This document shows positions 48,301-64,000 of a stretch of 64,000 nucleotides of DNA, in pieces. The notes under the pieces are model-generated. The model was not told the DNA's origin. It saw only the letters and a program-made list of their open reading frames with translations, and ran no database searches. The stretch covers positions 1,952,001 through 2,016,000 of the forward strand of contig CAVQYR010000001.1 of NCBI GenBank assembly GCA_963718235.1, read 5' to 3'. The stretch comes from an uncultured Actinomycetota bacterium. GTDB lineage: Bacteria; Actinomycetota; Actinomycetes; JAHEKZ01. Both the position numbers and the translations under genes were made by a program. Positions within the stretch are counted from its first letter, which is position 1. Each line of letters begins with the position of its first letter.

Positions 48301-49995
48301 GTTTGTGGGCTCGGTCAACGGCATGGAGAAGTCAGGAAGGGTACCGCCCGTCTGCGCATCGATGGCGACGAGACGACTGGCATTGGCATCATTAAAGATG
48401 TCGAAGTTGCCACCGACGTACACCGTGGACCCGTCGGTGCGGACCTGCATGTCCTTGACGTAGGAGTTCGCCGAGGCGTTGAAGCCGGCCACGTTGTTCC
48501 CTGTTGCGATATCCAACTTCGCGATGCGGCTGCGAGGCGCGCCAGCGATTGAGGTGAAGTCGCCACCCACGAAGACGGCCTGCGCGTTGGCCGAGGCCTT
48601 CACGGTGTTGACCTGGCCGTCAGGGTTGGGGTTGAAGTCCGATCGCAGGGCGCCGGTCGTCAGGTCGTACGCAGCCAGTCCGTTGCGCGTGGTGACGCCG
48701 TAGTCGGAGAAGTCTCCGGCGACCAGGAGCGACGACCCCTGTCGCACCAGTGCAAGGGCGCCGCTAGTCCCGCTCACCGCGGGCCGGGCCAGGGAGCGTG
48801 GTGTCTCGTAGTAGGGCACGAGGGCGGTCACGACGCTGGTCGACAGGGCCACTCGGGCGATGATCGCCGGGTTGCCCTTCTCCGGGGTGATTCGGAACGA
48901 GCCACCGATGAAGAGTCCACCGGCACCGTCGAGGGTCAGGGTGCTCACGTTGCCAGTGATGTTGGTCAAGTTGAGCGGGGTTACGGCACCAGTACCCAGG
49001 TCGACCCCGGCGAGCCTGAGCCGGGCCAGCCCGCCCACCTGCCCGAAGGCACCGCCCAGGTAGAGCGTGTTGGTCGACGGGTCCAGCTCGATGTCGAACA
49101 CCGTCCCGTTGACACTGACGTTCAGCGGCCCGAGTGAGCCGGTGGTGCCGTCGACCTGAGCGAGCCGGTTACGGGTGACGCCGTTGACCTTGGTGAACTC
49201 CCCGGCAAGCAGGACCTCGCCGCTCGGTCGAACCACGATGTCGTTGACCGGGGTGTTGGCTACCCCGGGGGCGAACGCGGTGTTCCGCGTGCCGTCGGCG
49301 GCGTTCACGGCTCCGACGCGACGTGTGGTGACCCCACCGATCTGGGCGAAGTCACCGCCCACATAGACCCGCGTCTCGTCGACGGACAGCGCAACCGTAC
49401 GGACGGCTCCTCCGCTGATCGAGCCACCCCACAGCAGCGCGCCTCCCGCACCGAACGAGGCGATGCCGTTGGCCGCCTGGCCGGCGGCGGTCGAAAAGGA
49501 TCCACCAACGATGACACCACCGGTCGTCGTCGCGGCAAGGTCGAGCACCGGTCCGTTGGGCGCCGGGTTGAACGAGGTGACGGCACCACCTGAGTCGACC
49601 TGGGCCAGGTTCGCCCGGTTGACCCCGCCGACGCTGCTGAAGGACCCACCGAGGTACCAGCCGCCCGACCCGTCGGGCACCGCGGCACTGACCGAACCCA
49701 CGACGTCGGGGAAGCCCGGCTGGAAGCTCTTGCCGGCCACGTCGACCACTCCGGCCGCGCCTCGGGTCACCGGGCCGATCTTGGTGAAGTTCCCACCGAT
49801 GACCACCGAGCCACCCACCTGGGCGATCGTGCGGACCTCGCCGTCGACCGCGTGGACCCCCGCGTCACGAGGCCGCTCCGCGACCGTTCCTGGGCGGGAG
49901 TTCGGGTCGGCCGAGGCTGAGGGGACGGCGAGCGCGCCCAGCACACCGATGGAGACAGCCATGGCGGCAGCGGTGGAACGAACGACGAGCTTCAA
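45397..49995 (-). CDS. Large secreted protein: N-terminal beta-propeller repeats, Ig-like domains, C-terminal NHL repeats
   Basis: Signal peptide ending PSASA; many YVGGDF/GGSF..R..LA repeats; two Cys-containing Ig-like units (CALPQTLAPGEMYSC, CGLPAALGPNELKYC); NHL repeats; TTG start with GGAGGT. Confidence 0.85.
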   Translation of the reverse strand: MKLVVRSTAAAMAVSIGVLGALAVPSASADPNSRPGTVAERPRDAGVHAVDGEVRTIAQVGGSVVIGGNFTKIGPVTRGAAGVVDVAGKSFQPGFPDVVGSVSAAVPDGSGGWYLGGSFSSVGGVNRANLAQVDSGGAVTSFNPAPNGPVLDLAATTTGGVIVGGSFSTAAGQAANGIASFGAGGALLWGGSISGGAVRTVALSVDETRVYVGGDFAQIGGVTTRRVGAVNAADGTRNTAFAPGVANTPVNDIVVRPSGEVLLAGEFTKVNGVTRNRLAQVDGTTGSLGPLNVSVNGTVFDIELDPSTNTLYLGGAFGQVGGLARLRLAGVDLGTGAVTPLNLTNITGNVSTLTLDGAGGLFIGGSFRITPEKGNPAIIARVALSTSVVTALVPYYETPRSLARPAVSGTSGALALVRQGSSLLVAGDFSDYGVTTRNGLAAYDLTTGALRSDFNPNPDGQVNTVKASANAQAVFVGGDFTSIAGAPRSRIAKLDIATGNNVAGFNASANSYVKDMQVRTDGSTVYVGGNFDIFNDANASRLVAIDAQTGGTLPDFSMPLTEPTNDMSEGGLRAMALSSDETRLMIIGNFRKVAGIERPLIAQIDVATQTPSVTDWTTDLYDQPCARSGKVGFMRDVDISPDGTKAYVVSAGHFYYPACDSLNAFPMASGGSNVLPLWTDKIGDTMEGVAADQDTVYVSGHFRYLETETRTQPRFQIAAVDAQTGAGLNWIPNAGGFRGVLTVELEPAGLFAGSDGDAFGVVNHGRNAFWPTPSPGIEVRKAPSRAWVIAPSGTVSNKVRVQNTYLDRSVTVTALNDERMGNLNGSGSCALPQTLAPGEMYSCTTATETISGVAAAEVSSTVTATADANGTLVTDSDKSTVQVIATAPVFRLRTVVGPGQINYPGATVRFNVTMMNLDLERSTTVTSLTSPTFGDLSSECGLPAALGPNELKYCHVDRFVTGSVGSKPTFSFTGSATYDSGVLTSTSSQTVTINPPVGGTKVLAVVANPAALSGSDKKVQDYVEDNYTITYVDDNTVQVSDVLPDYSYVVLYPSTVEAKLGSRLRDLDRPVMVLHSRMLDEMGMTAVGGNATELTTQTVMAKSMHPLSVALAGTQTINTASIETGFGTPAASAEVIRKTPSGQPSEFVYHEGATMSAGSAVACRVFFSANNPTKFNSVAWNLFNRAAAYVSQDCGKNMLWTAAGSGATAYGSGEGRQSVTVGFNTPWGLAIDAQDRIYVADAGNNAVRRIDPDGTVTTVAGTGTAGYSGDGGPATAARLSAPVRLAFDAVGNLYIADSSNNRIRKVTPAGIISTVVGTGTAGNTGDGGQATAARLRTPYDVAFAPDGTMYIADRGNHKIRKVTPAGVISTFAGTGSAGYNGDDIAATTARLNSPYSVDVDADGNVYIADYDNERVRIVDTNGIISTFAGTGVATIDGDGGLAVEAGLHKPQYVQVTPAGDVYISESNNNRIRIVHDGNINTVAGSGQFGFVGDGGFPVFSTWQRPSATVLDSQGNLWVADRNNRRIRVINAS
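45400..46400 (-). repeat. Tandem NHL-repeat coding units (~56 aa each)
   Basis: Repeated TVAGTGTAGYSGDGGPATAARL..P..GNLYIAD.NNRIRK units. Confidence 0.8.
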
Positions 49996-50166: not shown

Positions 50167-50964
50167 TCAGGTCTGGAGTTCCACCCGGGGTAGCTGCGCA
50201 GGTGCGGCACCTGCGTGGTCGCCCGCGCCAGGGGTGTGCACGACGATCCGGGTCCGGTCGGCGCGAAACAGGTCATGGGAGTACTCGATGGGAACACCCT
50301 GCTCGTCGCGCGTCACGCGAGTGACCGACAACAGGGGTGCACCTTCGGCCAGCCCCAGGATCCGGCTCTCGTCGGACGACGCCTCGACGACCTCGATGTG
50401 CTCCACCGCCCCGTCCGGGCGCACCCCGTAGTGCTCCTCGAGCAGCTCGTAGACGGACCCACCGAGCGGGAGGTCCAACAGCCCGGGGAACCGGTCGGCT
50501 GGGAGCCGAGCGTGCTCCAGGGAGATCGGGCTGCGGTTGGCGAGTCGGATCCGCACGATGTCGCACACGAAACCGCCCGGGGGCAGCTCCAGGGCCGCGA
50601 CTGTGTCGTCGTCCGCCGCTACGACCCCGGTACGCACCACGCGGGTTCCCGCGACGATCCCCTGGCTGCGAAGCAGCTGCGGGACGCCGACGACGCGGGA
50701 CAAGTCGCGTTCGACCTTCCCGTGCCCCACGAAAGTCCCCCCACCACGTCCGGGGACGCGGTGCACCGCGCCAGACGCCTCGAGTGCGGCCAGCGCCTGC
50801 CGCAGCGTCGACCGACTCACCCCGAACTCCACTGCCAGCTCTCGCTCGGACCCCAGCCGGTCCCCCGGCTTGAGCTCGCCGCGGTGAATGCGCTCCACGA
50901 TCGTTCGGCGCACCTGGTCGGCCGCCGGCCCCGGGAGCTCCGGAGCCGGGTCAGCATCCCTCAC
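50167..50964 (-). CDS. GntR/HutC-family transcriptional regulator with UTRA domain
   Basis: LKPGDRLGSERELA.EFGVSRSTLRQAL, GGGTFV, SVYELLEEHYG, IEYSHDLFRAD; last gene of the BMC operon. Confidence 0.93.
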   Translation of the reverse strand: MRDADPAPELPGPAADQVRRTIVERIHRGELKPGDRLGSERELAVEFGVSRSTLRQALAALEASGAVHRVPGRGGGTFVGHGKVERDLSRVVGVPQLLRSQGIVAGTRVVRTGVVAADDDTVAALELPPGGFVCDIVRIRLANRSPISLEHARLPADRFPGLLDLPLGGSVYELLEEHYGVRPDGAVEHIEVVEASSDESRILGLAEGAPLLSVTRVTRDEQGVPIEYSHDLFRADRTRIVVHTPGAGDHAGAAPAQLPRVELQT

Positions 50965-50979
50965 GGCCAGCCTCCATCG

Positions 50980-51765
50980 TCAGGCACGAGCCGCGGCCAG
51001 TGCCTCCAACGACTCCGGAAGAACCTGCCCCCCGTCGACCACGATCGACTGGCCGGTGATGTAGCCGGCTTCGTCGGTCGCGAGGAACAGAGCCGCGTTT
51101 CCGATGTCGGCCACGTCACCGATGCGCCCGAGCGGGATCGACGCGGCCATCCCGGCGATGTAGTCGTCGCCCATACCGATGAGACCCTCGGTCATCACGT
51201 TGCCGGGAAGGACCGCGTTGACGGTGATTCCCATCGGCGCCAGCTCGATCGCCGCGGTACGCATGAAACCCAGCTGAGCGGCCTTGCTCGCTCCGTAGTG
51301 GGACCAACCGGGGTAGCCGGTGATCGGCCCGGTGATGGACGACGTCAGCACCACCCGCCCGTGTCCACTGGCGGTCAGCGCATCGATGCACGCCTGGACC
51401 GACCACAGCGTGCCCTTGACGTTCGTGCCGAGCACGAGGTCCCAGTCGGCCTCCGTCATCTCGGCGAGGCGCTTGTCCGGGAAGACCCCGGCGTTCGCGC
51501 ACAGGACATCGATCCCGCCGTGCCGCTCGACCGCGGTCGCCGCCATGCGTCTGGCGTCGTCCTGCACACTCACATCCGCTACGACGTAGGACACAGAGCC
51601 ACTGGACGACGCAAGGTCGGCCACTGCCGCCTGCGCGGCCGACTCGTCACGGGCTGCTATCAGCACGTTGGCCCCGGCGTCGGCGAAGACCCTGGCGATC
51701 CCCTTTCCTATTCCCTTGCTGCCCCCGGTGACGATCACCGAACGTCCTGCGACCGACGTGAACAT
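50980..51765 (-). CDS. Short-chain dehydrogenase, probable 1-amino-2-propanol dehydrogenase / aminoacetone reductase
   Basis: [41 protein letters not shown]; matches the SDR of RMM/AAU microcompartment loci. Confidence 0.85.
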
Positions 51766-51808: not shown

Positions 51809-52828
51809 TCAGGCGAACTGCGACAAGTAGCGCTCCGCCAGCTCACAACTGCCGACCGTATAGCCAGCACCGAGCTCTTGGGCGATCTCGACGGCACTGT
51901 GCGACCCGATCCAGGCCACCAGCAACAGCCGACGGAACATGATGAAGGTCCAGATCTCGTCCTCGTCGGCCTTCGGCAGCTCGAGTACCTGGCGGTAGCC
52001 GCGTACCCACGAGTCGACCATCTCCGGGACCTGCGGGTAGTGCTCGATGAAGCTGACGGCGGTCCCCAGGTCGTACAGGAACCAGCTGAACCCACTGTCG
52101 TCGAAGTCGATGACGCTCACATTGCGGCCTTTGGGAGAGTCCTCCACCAGGAGATTCGCCAGCCTCGTGTCCGCATGCACGAGCCCGAACCGGTCCGGTC
52201 CGGCTCCGAAGGCCTCGAGCCGCCGTCTCAGGGTGTCGTCCAACCGGCCGAGCACCTGGCGCTCCTCGACCCCCACTCCGACGCCCTGCTGCCAACGCCC
52301 CCAGCGAGCCTCCGAGCCGAACGCTGCGTCGTAGTCCCATGCGAAGCGGGTGAAGTCGACGGGACGCACCCACTGCCTGGAGTGCCGGTGCATGCGGGCC
52401 GTGATCCGGCCCAGCTCCTCGAAGTCCTCGACCAGTCGGTCCTCCAGGGGCTCGTGCCCGCCCAGGAACTCGAACATGACCACGTTCCGCGGGTGTGCGG
52501 AGCCGGGGTCGGGCACGGTGACCACCCGCTCGCCGACGGTGGTCGGGATCACGTGCGGTGTGCGGATGTCCGCCTCGTCACGTAGGGCGTCGACCCAGGC
52601 CAGCTCGGACTCGATGGCCTCGCGGGTGTGGTAGTCGAGTCGATGCACGCGCAGGATGTGCTTGTCTCCGGTCATCGGGTCGTCCACGCGGAAGGTCGCG
52701 TTCTCCGACACGTTGAGGAGGGACACCGTGCAGTCCGGCGAGACGTCGTACGCCTCGAGCGCCTGCTGGGCCACCTCGGTCATCCGGGCCAGGACCTCGT
52801 CACCACCCGACAGGTCATGCACCTGCAT
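51809..52828 (-). CDS. APH/choline-kinase-fold phosphotransferase, probable aminopropanol kinase
   Basis: SENATF, LRVHR, VHADTRLANLL, IDFDDSG, YDLG; in AAU-type gene order. Confidence 0.85.
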   Translation of the reverse strand: MQVHDLSGGDEVLARMTEVAQQALEAYDVSPDCTVSLLNVSENATFRVDDPMTGDKHILRVHRLDYHTREAIESELAWVDALRDEADIRTPHVIPTTVGERVVTVPDPGSAHPRNVVMFEFLGGHEPLEDRLVEDFEELGRITARMHRHSRQWVRPVDFTRFAWDYDAAFGSEARWGRWQQGVGVGVEERQVLGRLDDTLRRRLEAFGAGPDRFGLVHADTRLANLLVEDSPKGRNVSVIDFDDSGFSWFLYDLGTAVSFIEHYPQVPEMVDSWVRGYRQVLELPKADEDEIWTFIMFRRLLLVAWIGSHSAVEIAQELGAGYTVGSCELAERYLSQFA

Positions 52829-52846: not shown

Positions 52847-53515
52847 TCAGTGGTCGCGTCCTTCGACCGCCTCGAGCACCTGGGTGATGCCCTCACGCGC
52901 CCGCTCGACCCCCTCAGTGTCCCCCGAGATGAACAGCCGTCCAGCTGCACCGATCATCTGGACGTCGACCAGAGTGTTCTCCGGGGCCACCTTCTCCGCC
53001 TCGTTCGCCGCAACCGCTGCGAACAGCGCTGGCGTCATCTCGTACACCAACAGCGTCTCACCGGGCATGACCATGGACGCCTGGCGGTTCCGGTTCACGA
53101 TGACGGCGTGCTGGTCGGTGATGTCGTGGATCACGTCGGAGTAGAGGACTCGCGGCCGGAGCTGGTCCGACGGTGACGCACCGATCCCGTTCAAGATCGC
53201 GCGCCCCGCGCGCTGGACGTCCTCGAGGTCACGACCGTGCACCTCGAGCACCCCGAACTGGCGCTCGACGAACAGGATCCCGGGTTCGACCGTCGGCACC
53301 GACTTCAGCGCCAGGTCGATCACTCGCTCGATCGCCAGGCCCGGTGCCACCTCGACGATCAGCGCATGGTCACCCTGGAAGGGTGGATACCCCCGCGCCC
53401 GGGTGGGCGTCCCGAGGTACGCAGCGAACTGACGCTGCAGGTCCTCGATCAGCAGGTAGACGCGTAGCTCGGTCCGAGGAGCCTCCGACGCGCCTGCCAG
53501 GGGCGAGTCCGTCAT
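52847..53515 (-). CDS. BMC shell protein, tandem-domain trimer (BMC-T)
   Basis: LRVYLLIEDLQRQFAAY, IVEVAPG, VERQFGVLEVH, AANEAEK, IGAAGRL. Confidence 0.9.
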   Translation of the reverse strand: MTDSPLAGASEAPRTELRVYLLIEDLQRQFAAYLGTPTRARGYPPFQGDHALIVEVAPGLAIERVIDLALKSVPTVEPGILFVERQFGVLEVHGRDLEDVQRAGRAILNGIGASPSDQLRPRVLYSDVIHDITDQHAVIVNRNRQASMVMPGETLLVYEMTPALFAAVAANEAEKVAPENTLVDVQMIGAAGRLFISGDTEGVERAREGITQVLEAVEGRDH

Positions 53516-53518
53516 GCC

Positions 53519-53803
53519 TCACTCTCCCCCGGTGACCTTGAAGTTCTTGCTCAGCTCGGCGTGCGGGCGTGGGATGACGTGCACGGACACGAGCTCTCCG
53601 ATCGAGGCAGCGGTCTCTGCCCCGGCCTCGGTGGCTGCCTTGACGGCTCCCACGTCACCGACGATGGTCACGGCGACGAGCCCGTCGCCCACCTCGTCGC
53701 GGCCGACGATGGTCACGTTGGCCGCCTTGACCATGGCGTCGGCCGCTGCCAGCGCAGCGACGTACCCCTTGGTCTCGATCATTCCGATCGCGTTGTTCGA
53801 CAT
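53519..53803 (-). CDS. BMC shell hexamer (BMC-H, EutM/PduA-like)
   Basis: [36 protein letters not shown]. Confidence 0.96.
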
Positions 53804-53846
53804 CACTCTCTCCTCTTGCAGTGCGCGACGTACGTCGTCGCGGGCT

Positions 53847-54128
53847 TCAGGACTCCGCCCGGTGGGCACCGGTCGGTGCGGGTACGTCGACGTGGTCGAT
53901 GGACCCGATGATCAAGGCATCCAGGGGCGGTGGCTTGCCGGGAAACCAGGCCGCGGCTACCGACCCGGTGGCAACCAGGACGTGCTCACCGACCCCACTG
54001 CCGAGGACGTCGAACGCCACCATGCGGCTCCCGGAGTCCTCCACCTCGACCTCGAGGAACGCACCGTTCGGCAGCTCCTCCAGCCGTCTGGTCGCCCAGA
54101 CGTTCCCGACGACGACTGCTCGCAACAT
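53847..54128 (-). CDS. BMC vertex pentamer (EutN/CcmL family)
   Basis: [35 protein letters not shown]. Confidence 0.93.
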
Positions 54129-54589
54129 CACGGCTCCCTTTCGATGACGACGCCCAGGGCTCGCGCCTTGTCGCGGGCCAACGGCGTCAGAACGGCGCGC
54201 CGGCCGAGGAGCAGGGTCGCCCCGACCCGTGCGGCGTCCTTCACCTGCGCCTCGGTGACAGCTCCCTTGTCGATCCGACGCGAGGGGGGTGTTCGACCCG
54301 GCTGGGACCCGGCGGTCAGAACGAACCTGATCCGGCCGGACACCAGGTCGGCCCGCTGCTTGGGGTTGTCGGCCATGCTCAACACCCGCAGTGCGAACGC
54401 ATGCAGCTCGGTGTCGTCGCGCAAGGACACCTCATGGACGGTCTGCCCTGCGGCAGCGTCTGTGGAGAGCACCGTCGATGTGTCTCGGGCGGGCATCGTC
54501 CCGACGGCGTCTGGCAGCTCGTCCGACAGCACCTGTCGGATCATGGCACGCAGCCCGTCTCGGTCGAGGGAGCCCATGGACGAGGTCAC
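54128..54589 (-). CDS. Conserved BMC-associated protein with N-terminal encapsulation-peptide-like helix
   Basis: LDRDGLRAMIRQVLSDEL amphipathic helix; C-terminal VTEAQV..VLTPLARD motif; embedded in shell operon with overlapping stops/starts. Confidence 0.75.
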   Translation of the reverse strand: MTSSMGSLDRDGLRAMIRQVLSDELPDAVGTMPARDTSTVLSTDAAAGQTVHEVSLRDDTELHAFALRVLSMADNPKQRADLVSGRIRFVLTAGSQPGRTPPSRRIDKGAVTEAQVKDAARVGATLLLGRRAVLTPLARDKARALGVVIEREP

Positions 54590-55189: not shown

Positions 55190-56764
55190 TCAGCCCCTGA
55201 TGATCTGGTTGAGCTCTTCGACGATCATGCGTCGGATCTCCTCACGGACGTCAGCGGCTTCGATGGTCAGGTCGGCACCCTGCCGGTGCGCAGCGGCTTC
55301 CGTCGCTGGTGAGGCAGCGTCGAGGTTCGACGCCGTCGGGTAGGGCGGCACGTGTCCTTGCGGATGAACCCACGGCACCATCCCCGAGAACTCGCCGAAC
55401 GGCTCGTCGACGTCGGAGTTGTAGGCGATCCGCGTCCAGTTCACCAGGTGCTTGGGCTGCAGGTTCTCACCCACCGAGGATCGTCCGGCGAATCCGGTCC
55501 CGATGGTCATCGACGGCGGCAGGTTGGTCTCGATCCCCGAGCTACCGAGGCTGTTGCCCACGTTGACCGACACGCGCAGCACCGGCACGGCTGCGCTGTA
55601 GCTCATCACCGTGCGAGCGTCCTTGCTGTGAATGGCGGCCGAGTGGCCAGCGCCGGTGATCCGGAGCACCGCGCGTGCCACATCGATCCCGCGGTCCACG
55701 TTCGGCACGGTCACCAGGCCGAGCACGGGACACAGCTTCTCGTGCGCCAGCAGCTCCTCTGGCACCACGAGGTCGAACGGGGCCAGCAGCACCTTGGTGT
55801 TGGCGTGCACCCTGATCCCCGCCTGGTCGGCGATCCAGGCTGCGCTCTTGCCCACCATGCGGGTGTCGAAGTGACCGGCAGGGAAGAGCAGGGCCCGGAT
55901 GCGGTCCCGCTCGTCGTCCGCCAACAGGTAGGCGCCCTCCCGCTCCATGAGCTTGGTGAGCCGTTCGCGAACCGACTCCTCGACGATGAGGACACTCTCG
56001 TTGGTGCACAGGATCGAGTGGTCGAAGCTCTTGCTCTCGATGATCCGGCGGGCCGCCTTCGCCAGATCTGCCGAGGCATCGACGAGCACGGGGACGTTGC
56101 CCGGCCCCACCCCGATCGCCGGGTTCCCCGACCGGTAGGCGGCCCGGACGACGGGAGATCCCCCGGTCGCCACGATGACGTCGGTCCGCTCGTCGGTCAT
56201 GAGGGCGTTGATCAGGGGGACCGACGGCTCCTCGACAACCTGCACGATCCCGTCCGGGGCGCCGGCAGCGACCGCGGCGTCCGCCATCGTCCGCGCTGCA
56301 TCGGCACAGACCACGCGAGCGAACGGGTGCGGACTGATCACGATGGCGTTCCGGGTCATCAGCGCCAGCAGCGTCTTGAAGAAGACACTGGCCACCGGGT
56401 TCGTGGACGGCGTGAGCGCGAGGACGACACCGGCCGGCCTGGGTACCTCGACGATCTTCGCGGCGTGGTCGATCCGGGGGGTCACGTAGTCGTGGTCGCG
56501 GTACGTCTGGACCAGGCCCCGCGAGCAGGACATGTTCTTCAGCAACTTGTGCTCGGCGACGCCGAAGCCGGTCTCGGCCACCGCGCGCTCGGCGAACTCC
56601 TCAGCCCGCGCCGCCCCGGCCTCGGCCGCGGCTTGAACGACACGGTCGACGGTGGCCTTGTCGTAGCGGGCGTATGCCTGCGCTGCCCAGTCGGCGCGCT
56701 CGACCATGGCACGACCCCGGGGCACCCCGGCGGGTTCCATCACCAGCTCTGCGGTCTCGCTCAC
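55190..56764 (-). CDS. Acylating aldehyde dehydrogenase (EutE/PduP-like) with C-terminal encapsulation peptide
   Basis: ETGFG, PSTNP, ATGG, GVGPGN, SKSFDHSILCTNE, EKLCPVL, GHSAAIHS; tail DVREEIRRMIVEELNQII after a Pro/Ala linker. Confidence 0.9.
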   Translation of the reverse strand: MSETAELVMEPAGVPRGRAMVERADWAAQAYARYDKATVDRVVQAAAEAGAARAEEFAERAVAETGFGVAEHKLLKNMSCSRGLVQTYRDHDYVTPRIDHAAKIVEVPRPAGVVLALTPSTNPVASVFFKTLLALMTRNAIVISPHPFARVVCADAARTMADAAVAAGAPDGIVQVVEEPSVPLINALMTDERTDVIVATGGSPVVRAAYRSGNPAIGVGPGNVPVLVDASADLAKAARRIIESKSFDHSILCTNESVLIVEESVRERLTKLMEREGAYLLADDERDRIRALLFPAGHFDTRMVGKSAAWIADQAGIRVHANTKVLLAPFDLVVPEELLAHEKLCPVLGLVTVPNVDRGIDVARAVLRITGAGHSAAIHSKDARTVMSYSAAVPVLRVSVNVGNSLGSSGIETNLPPSMTIGTGFAGRSSVGENLQPKHLVNWTRIAYNSDVDEPFGEFSGMVPWVHPQGHVPPYPTASNLDAASPATEAAAHRQGADLTIEAADVREEIRRMIVEELNQIIRG

Positions 56765-58051
56765 GACGCCCTCCGACCGAGGTGGGCGACCTCGGCCCGG
56801 GCTTTGGCTATCGCCACCTCGGTCCGGTCGAGCAGCTCCTCCACGATCTCCGGCTTGAGCAGGATCCCGGGCTTGTACTGCAGCACCCGGGGGTCGAGTG
56901 TGGAGAAGATCGCCCACACGCCGTTCTCGTACAGGTTCTTCATGACGTACTTGGCGCCCTGGGGGTGGTCGAACTCAAGCCCCATTACGACGCCGTTCTG
57001 CCGGATGCCGACGAACCAGTCCGGGTACGTCGCCTGGATCTCACGCAAGCCTCGTCCGATCCGGTCGGCGATGTAGTGCACCATCGAGCGGGTCTCGGGC
57101 CGGCTGGAGATCTCCAGGGCCTTCAACGCGGCGATGCACCCCAGCTCGGCCCCGCCGAACGTGGAGATGTGGCCGAAGCCGTCCTCCTCCAGCCACCCGG
57201 CGGCGGCGTCGGTGACCAGGACGGCTGCGATCGGGTACATACCCCCGCTGATGCCCTTGCCGGTGACCAGGATGTCCGGGGTGATGCCGTGCTTGGTGAT
57301 GCCCCACAGCTCACCGGTCCGCATCAGGCCGGTCTGCACCTCGTCGGCGATGTAGAGGGAGCCGTACCTCTCACACATCCCTTTGACGGCCTCGAGGTAG
57401 CCCGGGTTCAGGCAGGGGGAAACCGTAGGTGGCCGGGATCGTCTCCATGATGACGGCCGCCACGTCACGCCCACGCAGCGCGGCGTCCATGGCGTCGAGG
57501 TCGTTGAACGGGACGTGCGGGAACTCCTCCGGCTGGTCGGACAGGAACAGCTTGGAGAACCGGTCGTCACCGGTGGCCACGGCCAGGCCGGTGTGTCCGT
57601 GGTACGCCTTGACGATGGACACGATCTTGCGTCGCTGTGTGGCATGGCGAGCGGTCTTGAGCGCGATGTCGATCGCCTCACCACCGCCACTGCCGTAGAC
57701 GACCTTGGCCAGACCCTCAGGGGCTGAGGTGATCAACGCCTCGGCGAGCGCCGTGCGCGCGAGCGAAGGGAAGTGGTGGTTGCCGATGTCGAAGCGCTGC
57801 ATGGCCACGGTGACGGCCTGAACGATCTCGCTGTTGCGGTGGCCGAGGCTGTAGGTGCCGCCGTTGAGGTGCACGTCGATCAACCGCTGGCCGGACATGT
57901 CGTAGATGAAGTACTCCTCGCGCCGGTCGATGACCAGCGGTACCCCTGAGTCGATCCAGAACTGGGTCTTGCCGGGGTTCCAGAACTCCTTCGACTTCGC
58001 CAGGACGTCGTCCTTGGAGTCGAAGCTGAAGAACCCGTAGTCGAAGGCCAT
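56761..58051 (-). CDS. Class III PLP aminotransferase-fold enzyme (probable aminopropanol-phosphate phospho-lyase); one extra base at ~57401-57406
   Basis: LGH, SGGGEAID.ALK, AYHG in the 5' frame; DEVQTG, GKGISGG, HISTFGG in the 3' frame; removing one base from GAACCCGGGCTAC gives PEPGYLEAVK. Confidence 0.85.
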
Positions 58052-58107
58052 GACCACCGTCCGTCGCCCGGCGTCCCTTCGGTCGAGCGGCCCGTGCCCG
58101 AAGTCGC

Positions 58108-58162
58108 CGTGTAGACCAAATACGAATTGGTACAGACCCAATTGTTACCTGATCAGACCAAA
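58108..58162. promoter_or_regulatory. Candidate GntR operator array in the divergent BMC/permease promoter
   Basis: AGACC at 58113, 58134 and 58155 (21-bp period) in an AT-rich patch; central site TTGGTACAGACCCAA is quasi-palindromic. Confidence 0.6.
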
Positions 58163-58395
58163 ACGGTCAATAGGTCCCGCAAGAGCGAGCCGAAACCGGT
58201 CGAAGACTCGCCCGCGAACCCCTCGAGAAACGCTGGACACTGGGCCGAACGAGTGCCACCATCGGCCCACCCTGTGGCGTAGGTCACAAGGGACGCGGTC
58301 CAGGTTGGCGCCGATCGGGGCGATTCGGTCCGGTCGGTGAGCCACCTTGGCTCGCGCAGGTGTCCAGTAGATCGGCCACGACGAAGGGCGAACTC

Positions 58396-59987
58396 GTGAC
58401 AGCACCCCAGAACCTGACGGGCGACCAGTTCGAACACGCGCCCGTCCCCCGCGCAGAGAGCTCCAACAAGCTCAAGGTCGGCGCCATCGGACTGTTCGGC
58501 GTCTTGTTCATGGCGGTGGCCAACGCGGCCCCGATCACGGCCATGACCGGCAACGTGCCGATCGCGGTCGCCTTCGGCAACGGCATCGGCGCCCCCGCCG
58601 GCTTCCTCGTCGCCACGATCGTGCTGACCCTCTTCACGGTCGGCTTCATCGTCGATGGCTCGGTACATCACCACCGCAGGTGCCTTCTACGGCTTCATCT
58701 CGCACGGGCTCGGCCAGATCTGGGGTATGGCCGCCGGGGCGCTGGCCACCATGGCCTACGTCGTGTTCGAGGGCTCCCTGATCGGGATCTTCTCCTACTT
58801 CGGCAACAGCGTGCTCAACGACTGGTTCGGCTGGAACATCAACTGGCTGATCATCGCCATCATCGGCATCGTGGTCGATCGCGATCTTCGGCTACTACGA
58901 CATCAACATCGCCGCCGCCGTGCTCGGCGTTCTTCCTGTCTGCGAGGTGCTCCTCCTCGGAGCGATCGCCTTCGGGATCTTGTTCCAGGGCGGCGGACCC
59001 GACGGCATCATCACCGAGGCGGTCAACCCGGCAAACGCCTTCAAGAACGGCCCTGAAGGGGGCGGGCTTCGGCATCGAGGGCCTTGCTGCCGGCAGCGCC
59101 GCGATCGGCGTCTTCTTCGCCTTCTGGTCGTGGGTGGGCTATCGAGACGACCGCGGTGTACGGCGAGGAGTCGCGGAACCCGAAGAAGATCGTGCCGATG
59201 GCCACGCTCATCGCGGTGGTCGGCCTCGGCCTGTTCTACACCTTCGTCTCATGGATGGTCATCTCCGGGAACGGCGTCGAGCAGTCGTTCAAGCTTGGCC
59301 CTCACCGACAGCATCGGGATGTTCACCGGGCAGGCCGACGACGTGCTGGGCAGCTGGTCGGTCTACGTCTACCAGTTCCTCATCGTGATGGGTTCCTTCG
59401 CGTGTGCGCTTGCCTTCCACAACGCGGCATCTCGCGTACATCTACGCAGTCGGCCGCGAGCTTCCTGCCACCAAGAACACCCTGGGCGCGACGCATGGAG
59501 TTCACCACTCGCCCCACATCGCGTCGGCGGTGCAGGCGGTGATCACCCTGCTGTTCACCTCGGCTTCTACTTCCTGACCGTCGGGGGCGACGACCCAGTT
59601 CAAGGCGCGTACATCTACCAGTACGGCCTGCTCGCAGTGCTCGGGACGTTCGCGATCTTGATCGTGCAGGCCATCTGTTCGCTCGCCGTCATCTGGTACT
59701 TCCATGTGAAGAAGGTGCACCCCGGCAACATCGTCACTACGGGGATCATCCCGGCACTCGGCGGGCTCGGCATGGCTCTACGTCTGCTACTTGCTGATCA
59801 GAACACGGGAGTTCGCCGGCGGCGGTGCGGCGGGCTCGCCGTTCTTCACCTGCATCTGGTATCACCGTGGTGGGTACTTTCCTCCTCGGCCTGTTCGGGG
59901 CTTTGTACCTGCGCAGCTCCAGCCCGACGTTTCCAGTCGATCGGCCGCACCGTGCTCGAAGAGCGCGCGAACGCGCCTGTCCCCTGA
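58396..59987 (+). pseudogene. APC-family amino acid/amine permease broken by many frameshifts (pseudogene or sequencing error)
   Basis: VANAAPITAM, ITTAGAFY, FFAFWSWVG, AVYGEESRNPK, SFACALAFHN, HHSPHIAS pieces lie in alternating frames. Confidence 0.75.
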
Positions 59988-60065
59988 CCTGACCGGATGC
60001 GAGGTGCGGGAAGCTCTCCGCACCCGCTCTGGCGTCCGGACGCGAACTCGATGGAGTTCCAGCCG

Positions 60066-61091
60066 ATGATCCGTCCAGTTCGGCATGATCGACCGGACGC
60101 CGAGCCGAGCGGCCCGACCTACACCTTCGGCGGGGCGGCGCCGGTGGCCACCATCCGTCCGGGCACGATCCTGTCGACATCGACCCTGGACTGCTTCGCC
60201 GGCAGGGTCCGCACGACGTCCGACCTGTCGTCGCAGGTGTGCGACCCGCGCTACCTGAACCCGCAGACCGGGCCCTTCTACGTCGAGGGCGCCGAGCCGG
60301 GAGACACCCTGGCGGTTCACTTCGTCAGCATCGAGCCCCATGAGGACTGGGGCGTGAGCACGACGGTCCCACTCTTCGGAGCCCTCACCAGCACACCGAC
60401 CACGGCAACCCTGCAGCCCGCGCTGCCCGAGCTGACCTGGATCTACGAGCTCGACCGGCAGGAGCGCCTGGTCCACTACAGCGCCCTGCGCAGCAGCCAC
60501 ACCGTGGCCCTGCCCATGGACCCGATGCACGGAACGGTGGGAGTCGCACCCGGACTCGGAGAGGTGCGCTCGTCACTGGCCCCGGGCGACTGGGGCGGGA
60601 ACATGGACACCCCGGAGATGCGCGTCGGGACGACGTGCTACCTCGGGGTGAACGTCGAAGGAGCCCTGTTCAGCCTGGGTGACGGCCATGCCCGACAGGG
60701 CGAGGGGGAACCCTGCGGGGTCGCGGTCGAGTGCGCCATGGACTCCGTGCTCCTCGTCGAACTCATCAAGGGAGTCCCCACACCGTGGCCGCGGCTCGAG
60801 AACGACACCTTCGTCATGACCACCGGGTCGACCAAGCCGCTCGAGGACGCCTTCCGGGTGGCCCACGTGCAGATGGTGCGGTGGGTCGCCGAGCTGACCG
60901 GGCTGGACGAGATGGATGCCTACCAGCTCGTGGCACAGGCCGCACTGACGCCGGTGGCCAACGTCTGCGACACCGTGTACACCATGGTCTGCAAGGTCGC
61001 CAAGGACTACCTGCCCGGCGCCCAGCCGATGCAGGGCACGCACACCCGGATGCGAGCAGTCGCCGACACCTGGCGTGAGGCGCAACGATGA
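60066..61091 (+). CDS. Acetamidase/formamidase family protein
   Basis: YTFGG, NPQTGPFYVEGAEPGDTL, GTVGVAP, GGNMD, GDGHARQGEGE.CGVAVE; start uncertain (60051 or 60066). Confidence 0.88.
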   Translation: MIRPVRHDRPDAEPSGPTYTFGGAAPVATIRPGTILSTSTLDCFAGRVRTTSDLSSQVCDPRYLNPQTGPFYVEGAEPGDTLAVHFVSIEPHEDWGVSTTVPLFGALTSTPTTATLQPALPELTWIYELDRQERLVHYSALRSSHTVALPMDPMHGTVGVAPGLGEVRSSLAPGDWGGNMDTPEMRVGTTCYLGVNVEGALFSLGDGHARQGEGEPCGVAVECAMDSVLLVELIKGVPTPWPRLENDTFVMTTGSTKPLEDAFRVAHVQMVRWVAELTGLDEMDAYQLVAQAALTPVANVCDTVYTMVCKVAKDYLPGAQPMQGTHTRMRAVADTWREAQR

Positions 61092-61498
61092 CCTCAGTCG
61101 ACCTGGCCTTCGCCCTGCGCATGTGCCGTGCAGCCGTCGAGCGCGCATCCCACCTCGACGCGCTCGTCTCGGTCGCCGTGGTCGATGCGGGAGGCCACCT
61201 CGTCGCCTTCCAGCGCATGGACGGCGCCGAGATCGCCGGGCCGACGCTGGCCACCGACAAGGCGTACACGGCGGTCGCACACCGGATCGCGACCCATGAG
61301 CTCACCGCGCTCACCGCACCCGGGGGCGCGCTGCAAGGCATGTACTCGAACGGTGGGGGCCGCTACATCGCCTTCGGCGGTGGCCTGCCACTGTGGCGGG
61401 CCGGCGGCGTGGTCGGGGGCGTCGGCGTCAGCGGCGGGACCGCGGCGCAGGACCTCGAGAGCGCGCGGTCCGCGGCCGCACTGTGGGACATTGACTGA
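61088..61498 (+). CDS. GlcG/HbpS-family heme-binding protein (PduO C-terminal-like)
   Basis: VSVAVVDAGGHLVAFQRMDGA, DKAYTA, FGGGLPL, GGVGVSGG..QD. Confidence 0.9.
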   Translation: MTSVDLAFALRMCRAAVERASHLDALVSVAVVDAGGHLVAFQRMDGAEIAGPTLATDKAYTAVAHRIATHELTALTAPGGALQGMYSNGGGRYIAFGGGLPLWRAGGVVGGVGVSGGTAAQDLESARSAAALWDID

Positions 61499-61499
61499 C

Positions 61500-63743
61500 A
61501 TGGGTGGGGCGAGGGAACCGGTCGGACGCATCCGGTTCATGGATGCCCAGAACGTCAACCTCGACGGGTTCGCCGTCGAGAACGCCGATCTCGGCCTGAT
61601 CGCACTGCACTCACCGCACGACCCCGAGCCGAGCCTGGTCGTTCGCGACAACCGGGTCGTCGAGCTGGACGGGGTCGCCGAGGAGGACTTCGACTCCCTC
61701 GACGAGTTCATCGCCCGTCACGGGCTCGACCTGTCCGTGGCTGCCGAGGCGATGGCCCTGACCGACCTCGACGTCGCCCGCCTGCTGGTCGACTCCGCAG
61801 TTCCCCGTACCGAGGTCGTCCGGCTGTCGGCCGGCATGACGCCGGCCAAGCTCACCCGCTGCCTCGCCCTGTTACGTCCGGCGGAGCTGGTCATGGCGAT
61901 GACCAAGATGCGCGCCCGGCGCACGCCCAGCAACCAGGCACACGTGACCAACCGACTCGACGACCCGATGCTCCTGGCGGCCGACGCCGCCACCGCAGCC
62001 GCCTTCGGGTTCCGCGAGGTCGAGACCACCGTGCCGGTGCTCGCCGACGCGCCGTCGAACGCCGTGGCGGTGACGATCGGTGCGGCAGTCGGCTCCCCCG
62101 GGGTGCTCGTGCAGTGCTCGGTCGAGGAGGCCCTCGAGCTCGAGCTCGGCATGCGCGGCTTCGTGTCGTATGCCGAGACCGTGTCGTTGTACGGCACCGA
62201 GCAGGTGTTCACCGATGGTGATGACACTCCGTGGTCCAAGGCCTTTCTGACGTCTGGATACGCCTCGCGGGGCATCAAGATGCGCGTCTCCTCCGGTGCC
62301 GGGTCCGAGGTGCTGATGGGTGGGGCGGAGCGCCGCTCGATGCTCTACCTGGAGGCGCGCTGCGTCGCTCTGGCCCGGGCCATGGGTTCGCAGGGCGTGC
62401 AGAACGGCGGCATCGACGGTGCGAGCGTCGCCGGGGCCGTTCCCCGTGGCGTGCGTGAGCTGATGTGCGAGAACGTCATGGTGATGATGCGCAACCTTGA
62501 GTCCTGTTCCGGCAACGACGCGTTGATGTCGGAGTCCGACGTGCGCCGCACGTCGCGCACGCTGCCGATCTTCCTAGCCGGCTCGGACTTCATCTGCAGC
62601 GGCTTCGGCTCGATCCAGCGCTACGACAACATGTTCGGGCCGAGCCAGTGGAACGCCGAGGACATCGACGACTACCTGGCGATGCAGCGCGACTGGGGCG
62701 TCGACGGTGGGCTACGCACGGCCCAGGCCGAAGATGTCGCGCGGCTGCGGCGCCGCGCAGTCGATGCGGTGCGAGCCGTGTACGGGTGGTTCGGGCTGGC
62801 CGAGTTCGACGACCAGCACGCTGCCCTCGCCGTCGACGCGGCTGGTTCGAAGGACCTCGGCGACACCGACGCCATGAAGGTGCTCGACGCGGCTCGAACG
62901 ATCCAGGAGTCCGGCCTCACGATCCTCGACGTCGTCACGGCGCTGTACGAGACGGGGTTCGAGACCGAAGCCGCACGGGTGCTCGAGATGATGAAGGCCC
63001 GGGTGGCCGGTGACTACCTGCAGTCCGCGGCCATCTTCGACGAAGCGATGAACGTCCTGTCCCTCGTCACCGACCCCAACGACTACGCGGGTCCCGGCAC
63101 CGGCTACACACCCACGGCGGAGCGGCAGGACGAGATCGATGCGATCCGTCAGCAGCGGTCGGTCGAGGACCTCCGGGCCGAGCAGCGCAGCCACGCGAGT
63201 GCCGCACTTCGGCAGGTCGGAGTGGCGGGGCCCGGGGCCGATCCCCGAGAAGTGGTCATCGGTGTCTCGCCCGCGGTGGGACGCGACATCTGGCTGACCC
63301 TCTCCGGACTCTCCGTCGTCGATGCCCTCGCCGAGCTGCTGGCGGGCCTCGAGGAGGAAGGATGCGTCGGCCGCATCATTCGGGTCAACGACACCATCGA
63401 CCTCGGCATGATCGGCCTGACCGCCGCACGGCTGTCCGGGTCGGGGATCGGCATCGGCCTGCAGGGCAAGGGAACGGCGCTGATCCACCGACGCGACCTG
63501 CCCCCCTTGGCGAACCTCGAGCTGTACAGCATCGCGCCTGTGGTCGGAGCAGACCTGTACCGCCTGCTCGGCGTGAACGCGGCCCGCCACGCGAAGGGCG
63601 CCACACCGGAGCCGGCCCGCAACCCCTACACCGACGAGGCGATCGAGGCGCGCTACCACACCAAGGTGGTCTCGCTGGTCGCGATCGAGCGTGCTCACTG
63701 CAGGCCCTCTGCGCCACCTGACGAGCTGGAGTCACCGGTATGA
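61500..63743 (+). CDS. B12-dependent diol/glycerol dehydratase homologue, large (alpha) fused to medium (beta) subunit
   Basis: VNLDGF, KMRARRTPSNQAHVTN, GFREVETT, YAETVSLYGT, DGDDTPWSK, GND, YDNMF, NDYAGPGTGY; then beta motifs GLEEEG, SGSGIGIGLQGKGT, LANLEL. Confidence 0.92.
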   Translation: MGGAREPVGRIRFMDAQNVNLDGFAVENADLGLIALHSPHDPEPSLVVRDNRVVELDGVAEEDFDSLDEFIARHGLDLSVAAEAMALTDLDVARLLVDSAVPRTEVVRLSAGMTPAKLTRCLALLRPAELVMAMTKMRARRTPSNQAHVTNRLDDPMLLAADAATAAAFGFREVETTVPVLADAPSNAVAVTIGAAVGSPGVLVQCSVEEALELELGMRGFVSYAETVSLYGTEQVFTDGDDTPWSKAFLTSGYASRGIKMRVSSGAGSEVLMGGAERRSMLYLEARCVALARAMGSQGVQNGGIDGASVAGAVPRGVRELMCENVMVMMRNLESCSGNDALMSESDVRRTSRTLPIFLAGSDFICSGFGSIQRYDNMFGPSQWNAEDIDDYLAMQRDWGVDGGLRTAQAEDVARLRRRAVDAVRAVYGWFGLAEFDDQHAALAVDAAGSKDLGDTDAMKVLDAARTIQESGLTILDVVTALYETGFETEAARVLEMMKARVAGDYLQSAAIFDEAMNVLSLVTDPNDYAGPGTGYTPTAERQDEIDAIRQQRSVEDLRAEQRSHASAALRQVGVAGPGADPREVVIGVSPAVGRDIWLTLSGLSVVDALAELLAGLEEEGCVGRIIRVNDTIDLGMIGLTAARLSGSGIGIGLQGKGTALIHRRDLPPLANLELYSIAPVVGADLYRLLGVNAARHAKGATPEPARNPYTDEAIEARYHTKVVSLVAIERAHCRPSAPPDELESPV

Positions 63744-64000
63744 GCGCGCCTGGACGCTCCGGGCGCCTCGCGCACGAGGTCACCCTCGATGCCGTGCGGT
63801 CCGGTGATGTCACCATCGACGACGTACGCATCCACCCAGACACCCTCGAGCACCAGGCGCAGGTCGCCGAAAGCCACGGAAACCCTCAGCTCGCGGCCAA
63901 CTTCCGCCGCGCTGCAGAGCTCACCGCGATTCCCGACGCCGACGTGCTGCGCATCTATGAGGCCCTGCGGCCCCACCGCAGCACTCCCGACGACTTCGAA
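63740..64000 (+). CDS. Diol dehydratase small (gamma) subunit, 3' end outside window
   Basis: Manual translation MSAPGRSGRLAHEVTLDAV..DVRIHPDTLEHQAQVAE..QLAANFRRAAELT..YEALRPHRS; ATGA overlap. Confidence 0.9.
   Translation, partial: MSAPGRSGRLAHEVTLDAVRSGDVTIDDVRIHPDTLEHQAQVAESHGNPQLAANFRRAAELTAIPDADVLRIYEALRPHRSTPDDFE

Follow-up and report, generated by a model that had tools for sequence, protein, structure and literature searches.

A lineage of B12-dependent diol dehydratase homologues with aspartate in the substrate pocket and linkage to amino-alcohol genes

A fused diol/glycerol dehydratase homologue encoded by an uncultured Actinomycetota bacterium combines an intact set of catalytic and metal-binding residues with aspartate and alanine at two positions that line the substrate C3 pocket of its characterised relatives. 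Its gene is a near-constant partner of genes for a dehydrogenase, a kinase and an aminotransferase, with or without microcompartment shell genes. The gene lies near the end of a 64,000-nucleotide stretch of DNA (GTDB lineage Bacteria; Actinomycetota; Actinomycetes; JAHEKZ01; NCBI GenBank assembly GCA_963718235.1, contig CAVQYR010000001.1, positions 1,952,001 to 2,016,000 of the forward strand), the whole of which is referred to here as the window. Diol and glycerol dehydratases, which depend on adenosylcobalamin (AdoCbl), are textbook examples of radical enzymes that use B12 and also serve in industry as catalysts, and all characterised members of the family take, to our knowledge, small neutral diols. 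The enzyme of the window and its relatives with aspartate at the position of Ser301 (the Asp lineage) probably act on a substrate other than plain propanediol. From the pattern of substitutions, we tentatively favour as substrate a vicinal diol that bears a cationic or amino group as its neighbour.

A dehydratase homologue with a substituted C3 pocket

The three domains of the family are encoded by two adjoining genes. Pfam places PF02286 (large subunit; residues 10-556, E 1.7e-235) and PF02288 (medium subunit; residues 606-703, E 1.8e-24) on a single chain, P0001, and the next gene carries PF02287, the small subunit (E 1e-29 for the part inside the window and E 1.5e-38 for the full gene, L002:241-600, which matches profile positions 20-130 of 133). 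The dehydratase ATG stands one base after the stop of the gene upstream, and the dehydratase stop overlaps the ATG of the small-subunit gene (63740). Among solved structures, phmmer ranks first 9vii_B, an engineered alpha-beta fusion of Klebsiella pneumoniae glycerol dehydratase (E 1.6e-201), followed by the natural glycerol dehydratase 1iwp_A and then by Klebsiella oxytoca diol dehydratase 1dio_A (E 4.2e-163); identity to the Klebsiella enzymes is about 49% over the large and medium parts. A PduO-type adenosyltransferase gene is present elsewhere in the same genome.

Residues 14-549 of the window protein pair with residues 9-544 of 1dio_A, which are equal spans, and the alignment to 9vii_B is gapless from residue 14 to about residue 547. 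Because the large-subunit alignment is gapless, the residue number minus 5 gives the diol dehydratase number, which is used below. A sequence-only reading of the window had given this numbering together with the Klebsiella motifs, and both turn out to be right: the letters of 1dio_A, obtained through the canonical actinobacterial sequence L066 aligned to the structure bank, are QNGSVSC at 296-302 and SSNDQTF at 332-338. By alignment to 1dio_A and 9vii_B, the five metal ligands Gln141, Glu170, Glu221, Gln296 and Ser362 (Q146, E175, E226, Q301 and S367 of the window protein) and the catalytic His143 and Asp335 (H148 and D340) are all retained, again as that reading had it. From these residues and domains, the gene product is predicted to be a working member of the diol/glycerol dehydratase family that depends on AdoCbl and calcium.

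Canonical actinobacterial and Klebsiella sequences combine Ser301 with Gln336, the pair that forms the C3 pocket of the propanediol- and glycerol-specific enzymes. In the window enzyme, the Ser301 position is occupied by Asp instead (D306, codon gac, 62415-62417) and the Gln336 position by Ala (A341, codon gcg, 62520-62522); both assignments, first made from the letters alone, are confirmed by the alignment to 1dio_A. The substitutions extend around these two residues, with Gly for Ser299 (62409-62411), Gly for Cys302 (62418-62420), Leu for Thr337 and Met for Phe338, and further pocket differences from Klebsiella are Val300Ile, His340Glu and Asp for Tyr178. Short-read contigs from public metagenome runs show no differences over 62260-62460, 62367-62896 and 62419-62569, although this agreement is no independent support, since the contigs may stem from the window's own sample. 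None of the 20 runs found is listed as holding RNA.

The sequence-only reading had also held that Ser301 and Gln336 shape the pocket around substrate C3, which agrees with the Klebsiella work as described in PMC7674605. There, the metal binds both substrate hydroxyls, and glycerol has two binding modes, its C3-OH being directed at Ser301 in one of them and at Asp335 in the second; S301A, Q336A and the double mutant remain active, with altered kinetics and inactivation, and the Km for propanediol is 0.06 mM in the wild type and 2.4 mM in the double mutant. Since the C3-OH of glycerol faces Ser301, residue 301 would touch the group that is attached next to the diol. Ala mutants at these positions reportedly favour longer chain 1,2-diols (Yamanishi 2012, cited in PMC7674605).

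The Asp301 lineage and the other pocket classes

Two sets of homologues were aligned. In the close set, the 119 best matches of a word-indexed search (75-95% identical), G299, D301, A336, L337, M338 and all seven catalytic and metal residues are found in 119/119. The seed of the distant set of 120 sequences was a 51%-identical representative, and most members of the set are Alphaproteobacteria (Mesorhizobium, Shinella, Agrobacterium, Bradyrhizobium, Hyphomicrobium and others); here G299 and D301 are present in 120/120, while position 336 varies among Thr, Ala, Ser, Cys and Val, and position 337 holds Arg in 118 sequences, Lys in one and Ser in one. Together, Asp301 and Gly299 occur in 239/239 aligned homologues from two phyla, as do the metal ligands, His143 and Asp335. 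A substitution conserved to this extent is therefore more than chance. Residue 302 in the Asp lineage is Gly, Ser or Ala, and the lineage comprises thousands of database proteins.

An exhaustive search of cluster representatives returned 1360 matches at E ≤0.001, and among the best 150 of these 1360, 67 rows span positions 301 and 336. Asp301 is found in 34 of the 67, with residue 336 being A in 20, T in nine, N in two, S in one, C in one and a gap in one; Ser301 is found in 28, with A in 21, Q in six and R in one; the other five carry a different residue at 301 and resemble frameshifted fragments. Judged by these two positions, there are at least three pocket classes in the family, namely the canonical Ser/Gln class, a Ser/Ala class (QNGSISC...NDAIA) and the Asp class.

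The Ser/Ala class, in which Ser301 is accompanied by a natural Ala336 (QNGSISC...NDAIA or NDALA; L072 and L079, P0124, P0133 and P0139), is mostly fused and accounts for 21 of the 67 rows. In L079, the enzyme adjoins genes for a glyoxalase, a short-chain dehydrogenase (SDR), a molybdenum hydroxylase and an aldehyde dehydrogenase. A contig of run X4, from the same metagenomes as the short-read contigs above, has loose ends at 62376 and 62408, and its continuation translates to the Ser/Ala-class motif, which points to organisms of that pocket class in the same habitat.

For a tree, 36 near-full-length large-subunit regions were prepared, one with 201 gaps was dropped, and the 35 others (543 columns, trait columns retained) were analysed with a quick IQ-TREE run under LG+G4. 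The 21 Asp rows form one side of a single branch (SH-aLRT 100), and six Ser/Ala rows form one side of another (support 99). The order inside the Asp side is a Rhizobiaceae/metagenome pair (Thr336), the mycobacteria-like copies (Asn336 and Ser336), L033 (Ser336) and the Ala336 clade that includes the query. Four gammaproteobacterial genomes (L022, L025, L038 and L057) are nested in the actinobacterial Ala336 clade, and this nesting suggests transfer of the Ala336-clade enzyme between phyla. The sequence-only reading had raised the question of whether the Asp/Ala pair marks a clade linked to AAU loci. A variant pocket does mark a lineage tied to amino-alcohol genes; however, the marker is Asp301 with Gly299, and Ala336 distinguishes only the actinobacterial/gammaproteobacterial subclade.

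When 20 Asp rows were compared column by column with 12 Ser rows (three long or oddly composed rows excluded), eight columns had no residue in common: 160 E>T, 174 G>P, 178 Y>D, 181 F/L>S, 258 F>V, 299 S/A>G, 301 S>D and 340 H>E. From Ser to Asp rows, three acidic residues are gained and one is lost. The secondary structure of an AlphaFold2 model places these columns in barrel strands or in the stretches just after them, and the topology of the barrel would put them on the active-site face. On the evidence of the alignment and the tree, the Asp lineage is an old, separate branch of the family with selection on Asp301. Among 401 sampled Actinomycetota genomes, the family is present in 8. Two mycobacteria-like genomes hold a canonical Ser/Gln paralogue together with Asp-class copies, in which position 336 is Asn or Ser, and the presence of both in one genome suggests that the two types do different jobs.

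These comparisons bear on the alternative that the enzyme is an ordinary 1,2-propanediol/glycerol dehydratase, whose propionaldehyde joins the propionaldehyde of the aminopropanol route at a shared aldehyde dehydrogenase; in a variant of this explanation, the enzyme closes a route from serinol via hydroxyacetone and 1,2-propanediol. Asp and Ala would then be tolerated, or would only tune the enzyme, for example against inactivation by glycerol. The intact catalytic and metal residues agree with this, and the Klebsiella S301A, Q336A and double mutants still dehydrate both propanediol and glycerol, with slower inactivation by the latter (PMC7674605). However, the Km of the double Ala mutant for propanediol is raised 40-fold, tolerance is hard to credit for a buried carboxylate beside the methyl group that is invariant in all 239 homologues from two phyla, and Asp-class copies are kept even in genomes with a canonical Ser/Gln enzyme. 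We consider an ordinary dehydratase somewhat unlikely, and the gene neighbourhoods add to both sides of the question.

The locus and its linkage across genomes

The features of the locus are collected in Table 1. It has the make-up of an RMM/AAUM-type locus, with BMC-H and BMC-P shell genes, an extra BMC-domain protein, an aldehyde dehydrogenase, an aminotransferase, a kinase, an SDR, a GntR regulator and a permease. No small reactivase subunit was found in the interval searched, between the reactivase large subunit and the next opposite-strand gene.

Table 1. Genes and motifs of the dehydratase locus (positions in the window, or in L002 where so marked)
Feature	Position	Strand	Evidence or remark
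GntR/UTRA transcription regulator	50167-50964	-	PF00392, PF07702
Short-chain dehydrogenase (aminopropanol dehydrogenase type)	50980-51765	-	PF13561, PF00106
APH-family phosphotransferase (amino-alcohol kinase type)	51809-52828	-	PF01636, E 7.5e-24
Conserved 222-aa protein, no Pfam family found	52847-53515	-	homologue in 24/30 well-flanked loci
BMC-H shell protein	53519-53869	-	PF00936, E 1.2e-25
BMC-P (EutN/CcmL) vertex protein, 94 aa	53847-54131	-	PF03319, E 1.2e-18
153-aa protein within the shell gene block, no Pfam family found	54128-54589	-	
BMC-domain shell protein, 200 aa	54586-55188	-	PF00936, E 6.4e-10
Aldehyde dehydrogenase, start codon uncertain	55190-56917	-	PF00171, E 8.2e-27
Class-III aminotransferase-fold protein (phospho-lyase type), one frameshift near 57410	56791-58141	-	PF00202, two overlapping frames
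APC-type amino-acid permease, at least four frames in this assembly	58360-59990	+	tblastn with intact homologue
Acetamidase/formamidase-family amidase, 364 aa	59997-61091	+	PF03069, E 2.9e-24
HbpS/GlcG-like protein, 136 aa, directly upstream of the dehydratase	61088-61498	+	PF03928, E 4.5e-33
Fused large and medium subunits, AdoCbl diol/glycerol dehydratase homologue, 747 aa (P0001)	61500-63743	+	PF02286, PF02288
QNGGIDG motif	62400-62420	+	Gln296 equivalent 62400-62402
SGNDALM motif	62508-62528	+	Asp335 equivalent 62517-62519
Small (gamma) subunit, first 87 codons	63740-64000	+	PF02287; 119 aa in total, extends 99 bases past the window
Reactivase large subunit (DdrA-like), 564 aa, downstream of the small subunit	L002:597-2291		PF08841 and PF18427

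The aminotransferase and permease genes are interrupted in this assembly. The aminotransferase homologue of L012 aligns over residues 32-246 and 241-449 in two frames, with an extra G in CCCGGGC, and tblastn finds permease pieces in frames 2, 3, 1 and 2 between 58380 and 59759; for the permease homologues in L012, L053, L006 and L017, one frame suffices in each case. In low-depth (2-4) short-read contigs, a base is missing at 57410 (X3) and another at 58651 (X2), and a further ten differences of one base fall between 58928 and 59861, with none listed from 60000 to 63800. Since the short-read contigs differ by single bases exactly there, the breaks are most likely clustered assembly errors, at most strain-specific, and the dehydratase is clean. 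A methylation motif, GTCGAT, present at two of the sites, was considered as a cause of the frameshifts and dropped; the window contains 104 copies of the hexamer, in line with codon usage.

A scan of one genome per species gave 61 loci with a relative of the enzyme, 59 of them at 71-82% identity and two at 52-57% in many pieces. The window proteins were mapped onto these loci by tblastn, and 30 loci were well flanked, with at least 8 kb on both sides. A kinase or aminotransferase is found in 29 of these 30, and in 40 of the 45 loci with at least one long flank. Taken separately, the well-flanked loci contain the kinase in 29 cases, the dehydrogenase and the reactivase in 28 each, and the aminotransferase in 27; shell genes plus aldehyde dehydrogenase are present in 24, the HbpS-like gene upstream of the dehydratase in 23, the permease in 15 and the amidase in 10. 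There are two arrangements, with the amino-alcohol block either divergent upstream of the dehydratase or downstream of the reactivase. Five of the 30 (L006, L022, L038, L053 and L063) have no shell genes but do have the dehydrogenase and the kinase, which in L022 and L038 lie 7-10 kb downstream, and four of these five also have the aminotransferase. Many RMM loci, on the other side, are without the dehydratase.

The association extends to more distant members. The Asp-class copy of L078, a mycobacteria-like locus, adjoins genes for a GntR regulator, a dehydrogenase, a kinase, an aminotransferase and a permease, and has no shell genes. A plasmid search returned no relative at least 60% identical among 92 matching records. 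Plasmids of Agrobacterium cucumeris and Shinella zoogloeoides (L064 and L081) do carry a fused enzyme, 49% identical and with the motifs QNGGVDG...SGNDTKT. On both Rhizobiaceae plasmids, the fused enzyme and the small subunit are inside a binding-protein ABC-transporter operon and are followed by a short-chain dehydrogenase, a phosphotransferase, a class-III aminotransferase and a GntR regulator, with no shell, aldehyde dehydrogenase or reactivase gene within the operon. A Pseudomonadota sample of 400 genomes besides the centre genome added three carriers: L088 has the small subunit, an isochorismatase-family hydrolase, an APC permease, a dehydrogenase, a kinase and an aminotransferase and no shell genes, L087 has a dehydrogenase and a kinase within 9 kb, and L086 has only a dehydrogenase, 8 kb off.

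Part of this picture would suit the ordinary dehydratase introduced above. Shell genes and an aldehyde dehydrogenase able to take propionaldehyde are at hand in the 24 loci, a 'bifunctional microcompartment' reading was offered by Axen 2014 (PMC4207490), and growth on 1,2-propanediol is reported for an RMM2 carrier (PMC8156839). Nevertheless, the shell-less loci retain the dehydrogenase, the kinase and the aminotransferase and not the aldehyde dehydrogenase. The transporters beside the enzyme are amino-acid permeases or binding-protein ABC systems, neither of which a small neutral diol needs. Finally, a producer of propionaldehyde would be expected inside the shell, yet the enzyme has none of the N-terminal targeting extensions of the propanediol utilisation (PDU) type: its residue 14 pairs with residue 9-10 of the solved chains, its beta part begins at 1dio_B residue 47, after the linker, and its gamma subunit, at 119 aa, starts from Pfam position 20. 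The extension of PduD reportedly acts in targeting (work cited in PMC6620236).

Three further observations concern the surroundings of the enzyme. Hydrolases of C-N bonds recur beside Asp-class enzymes, including the FmdA/AmdA amidase of the window (59997-61091; 10/30 loci), the isochorismatase-family protein of L088 (L088:7755-8453) and the arginase-family and creatininase genes of L033 (7128-8078 and 17355-18116); the compound actually consumed may be an N-substituted precursor. Some 8 kb past the window end, a 976-aa fusion (L002:7821-10751) unites APH kinase, peptidase-M23 and class-III aminotransferase domains, so that the genome has a further pair of the kinase-plus-phospho-lyase-like kind. 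Adjoining the locus, and seemingly unrelated to it, is a gene for a protein of 1532 aa that contains NHL and beta-propeller repeats (45397-49995, minus strand).

Candidate substrates and comparison with known systems

In the Asp lineage, the residues of the radical and metal machinery are unchanged, but the pocket for the methyl group (C3) of propanediol has been rebuilt. If the substrate is a diol with an amino neighbour group, the diol would still be bound through the metal, and a polar, most likely positively charged (amino) group beside it would meet the rebuilt pocket. An invariant carboxylate, more room (Gly299, Gly/Ser/Ala302, a small residue 336 and Val258) and two more acids argue for a group that donates hydrogen bonds and is probably cationic. 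The simplest candidate would be 3-amino-1,2-propanediol or a close relative, with its carbonyl product handed to the neighbouring dehydrogenase, kinase and phospho-lyase-type aminotransferase. Abstraction of hydrogen from the aminomethyl-bearing carbon would give aminoacetone, much as 2,3-butanediol, an internal diol, is turned into the ketone butanone by the family (PMC4605612, PMC7674605); a propanediol-like binding mode would instead give 3-aminopropanal, for which the neighbouring enzymes have no obvious use. Support for a better turnover of 2,3-butanediol by Gln337/Phe375 mutants of glycerol dehydratase was sought in PMC4605612 and not found, and such mutants carry no weight here. The dehydrogenase, kinase and aminotransferase stay in the shell-less loci and the aldehyde dehydrogenase does not, and the aminoacetone/aminopropanol route therefore fits better than 3-aminopropanal.

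From aminoacetone and 1-amino-2-propanol, the route would then end in propionaldehyde inside the microcompartment. The order of steps is said by Mallette and Kimber to be kinase, then phospho-lyase, then propionaldehyde. The dehydrogenase of the RMM2 locus interconverts amino-2-propanol and aminoacetone (PMC4207490), and the RMM2 compartment has been proposed to convert aminoacetone to propionyl-CoA (PMC8156839). The dehydratase itself would work upstream of the shell and not within it, which fits the lack of room for Pdu-type targeting extensions. Because the shell genes are dispensable and many RMM loci are without the dehydratase, the enzyme would be expected to feed the aminoacetone/aminopropanol route from an additional precursor. 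In its most specific form, that of an amino-diol dehydratase making aminoacetone from 3-amino-1,2-propanediol or from a relative released by the amidase, this account of the Asp301 lineage is possible but doubtful.

Several points weigh against an amino-diol substrate. The linkage counts are not independent events, because the 61 loci are mostly close kin at 71-82% identity and were found with query-derived patterns. L033 (Ser336) is without a kinase or aminotransferase within 10 kb, and the genes around its enzyme encode arginase-family, creatininase, amino-acid permease and oxygenase proteins; L077 has unrelated neighbours, none of them an amine gene, and in L076 the neighbours amount to an APC permease and a PucR regulator. 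Arg337, found in 118 of the 120 proteobacterial sequences, may neutralise the Asp or indicate an anionic or zwitterionic group, and since it could pair with the Asp, the simple picture of a carboxylate that awaits an ammonium group is weakened. The predicted local distance difference test score (pLDDT) of the AlphaFold2 model (37-row alignment) averages 82.4 but falls below 50 at residues 303-305 and 339-357 of the window protein, that is, at both deviant pocket motifs, and the model is therefore no reliable guide to the position of the Asp side chain. 3-Amino-1,2-propanediol is not known to be an abundant natural compound, although soil and freshwater actinobacteria commonly carry the locus. 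The formation of aminoacetone also needs the substituent to be on the carbon from which hydrogen is abstracted, whereas Ser301 is described, in the accounts cited above, as facing the substituent of the other carbon. Lastly, Paracoccus yeei TT13, which has an RMM2 locus, is reported to grow on 1,2-propanediol (PMC8156839); no Paracoccus record is among the plasmid matches listed.

Some of these data would be accommodated by a different vicinal diol, one that is polar, zwitterionic or larger; examples are polyols, glyceryl derivatives and the products formed when amides or guanidino compounds are hydrolysed. The Asp would then serve as a hydrogen-bond acceptor or general base and not as an ammonium site. 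The enlarged pocket (Gly299, Gly302, a small residue 336 and Val in place of Phe258), the Arg337 of the proteobacterial members, the sugar-/polyol-type ABC transporter genes around the enzyme on the two Rhizobiaceae plasmids and the C-N bond hydrolases that recur beside it (FmdA/AmdA, isochorismatase-family, arginase-family and creatininase) are all in keeping with such a substrate. We nonetheless regard it as unlikely, as the data yield no candidate compound, the constant partners (dehydrogenase, kinase and phospho-lyase-type aminotransferase) indicate a small 1,2-amino alcohol or aminoketone, and the active site of the family is a closed barrel for C2-C4 diols.

The amine-centred locus and the three class-specific acidic residues could also be read as those of a B12 lyase that acts directly on 1-amino-2-propanol, 2-amino-1-propanol or ethanolamine, yielding propionaldehyde or acetaldehyde plus ammonia and bypassing the kinase and phospho-lyase. 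In Mycobacterium smegmatis, MSMEG_1547, one of three predicted large subunits, is only a few genes from eutBC (MSMEG_1553/1554; PMC8088520). A direct lyase is, however, very improbable: the five metal ligands are kept in 239/239 homologues and an ammonium group would not coordinate the metal, position 301 faces C3 and not the O1/O2 sites in the published description, and the kinase and phospho-lyase, which are almost always present, would be redundant.

Were the amino-diol reading true, a charged substrate would be new to the diol dehydratase family, and the reaction of the enzyme would be a previously unrecognised B12 activity. It would explain why the enzyme travels with the dehydrogenase, kinase and phospho-lyase, with a microcompartment or without, and would settle the disputed role of the RMM2 dehydratase. 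The Asp lineage would widen the known chemistry of the family and offer natural templates for engineering both substrate range and resistance to glycerol inactivation. The verdict of the 2021 microcompartment catalogue is reopened by the linkage: as the dehydratase is a constant partner of aminopropanol/aminoacetone genes, the understanding of what feeds these loci, which are widespread in soil and freshwater and include those of Nanopelagicales, is probably incomplete.

The locus type, the natural fusion and the roles of Ser301 and Gln336 are already in print. In the literature searched, with subscription journals largely outside it, we found no description of the Asp301 pocket or lineage, no assay of any member, no assay of an RMM2 or mycobacterial fused dehydratase, no work linking a Ser301/Gln336 change to the Asp lineage, and no mention of aminopropanediol in the microcompartment papers found. 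Ethanolamine ammonia-lyase, EutBC, resembles the predicted window enzyme in being an AdoCbl radical enzyme; its substrate is a small amino alcohol, and its aldehyde goes to a microcompartment. It belongs to a different protein family and is not known to bind a substrate-coordinating metal.

The gene set of RMM2/AAUM2, as described by Axen, Erbilgin and Kerfeld 2014 (PMC4207490), is the same as that of the window, with the dehydratase genes on the opposite strand in both. The locus type was catalogued in 2014, and the RMM2 dehydratase was judged unimportant in 2021 (Sutter et al. 2021), whereas seen from the side of the enzyme, the linkage is the rule (29/30 loci). The fused 'glycerol dehydratases' of Mesorhizobium loti and M. 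smegmatis (Liu 2010, cited in PMC7674605) share the architecture of the window enzyme, and Mesorhizobium proteins are among the Asp-class homologues. They were proposed for glycerol conversion, the accounts of them that we consulted do not mention the pocket change, and MSMEG_0497, MSMEG_1547 and MSMEG_6321 are listed there only as predicted glycerol dehydratases (PMC8088520, PMC4881515).

Klebsiella PddABC (1dio) and the glycerol dehydratases (1iwp, 1mmf and 9vi*) have the same three domains as the window enzyme and, as in the window genome, a reactivase gene alongside. The window enzyme differs from them in its natural fusion of large and medium subunits, in its small subunit of only 119 aa and in its pocket (Ser299Gly, Val300Ile, Ser301Asp, Cys302Gly, Gln336Ala, Thr337Leu, Phe338Met and His340Glu), and because of this pocket it is not of the PDU type; no small reactivase subunit is seen downstream before the next opposite-strand gene. 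The closest parallel to the pocket itself is the engineered S301A/Q336A diol dehydratase, in which the same two positions are altered and Gln336Ala is identical to the natural state in the window; by comparison, the window lineage has a carboxylate, not Ala, at 301 and six further lineage-specific changes.

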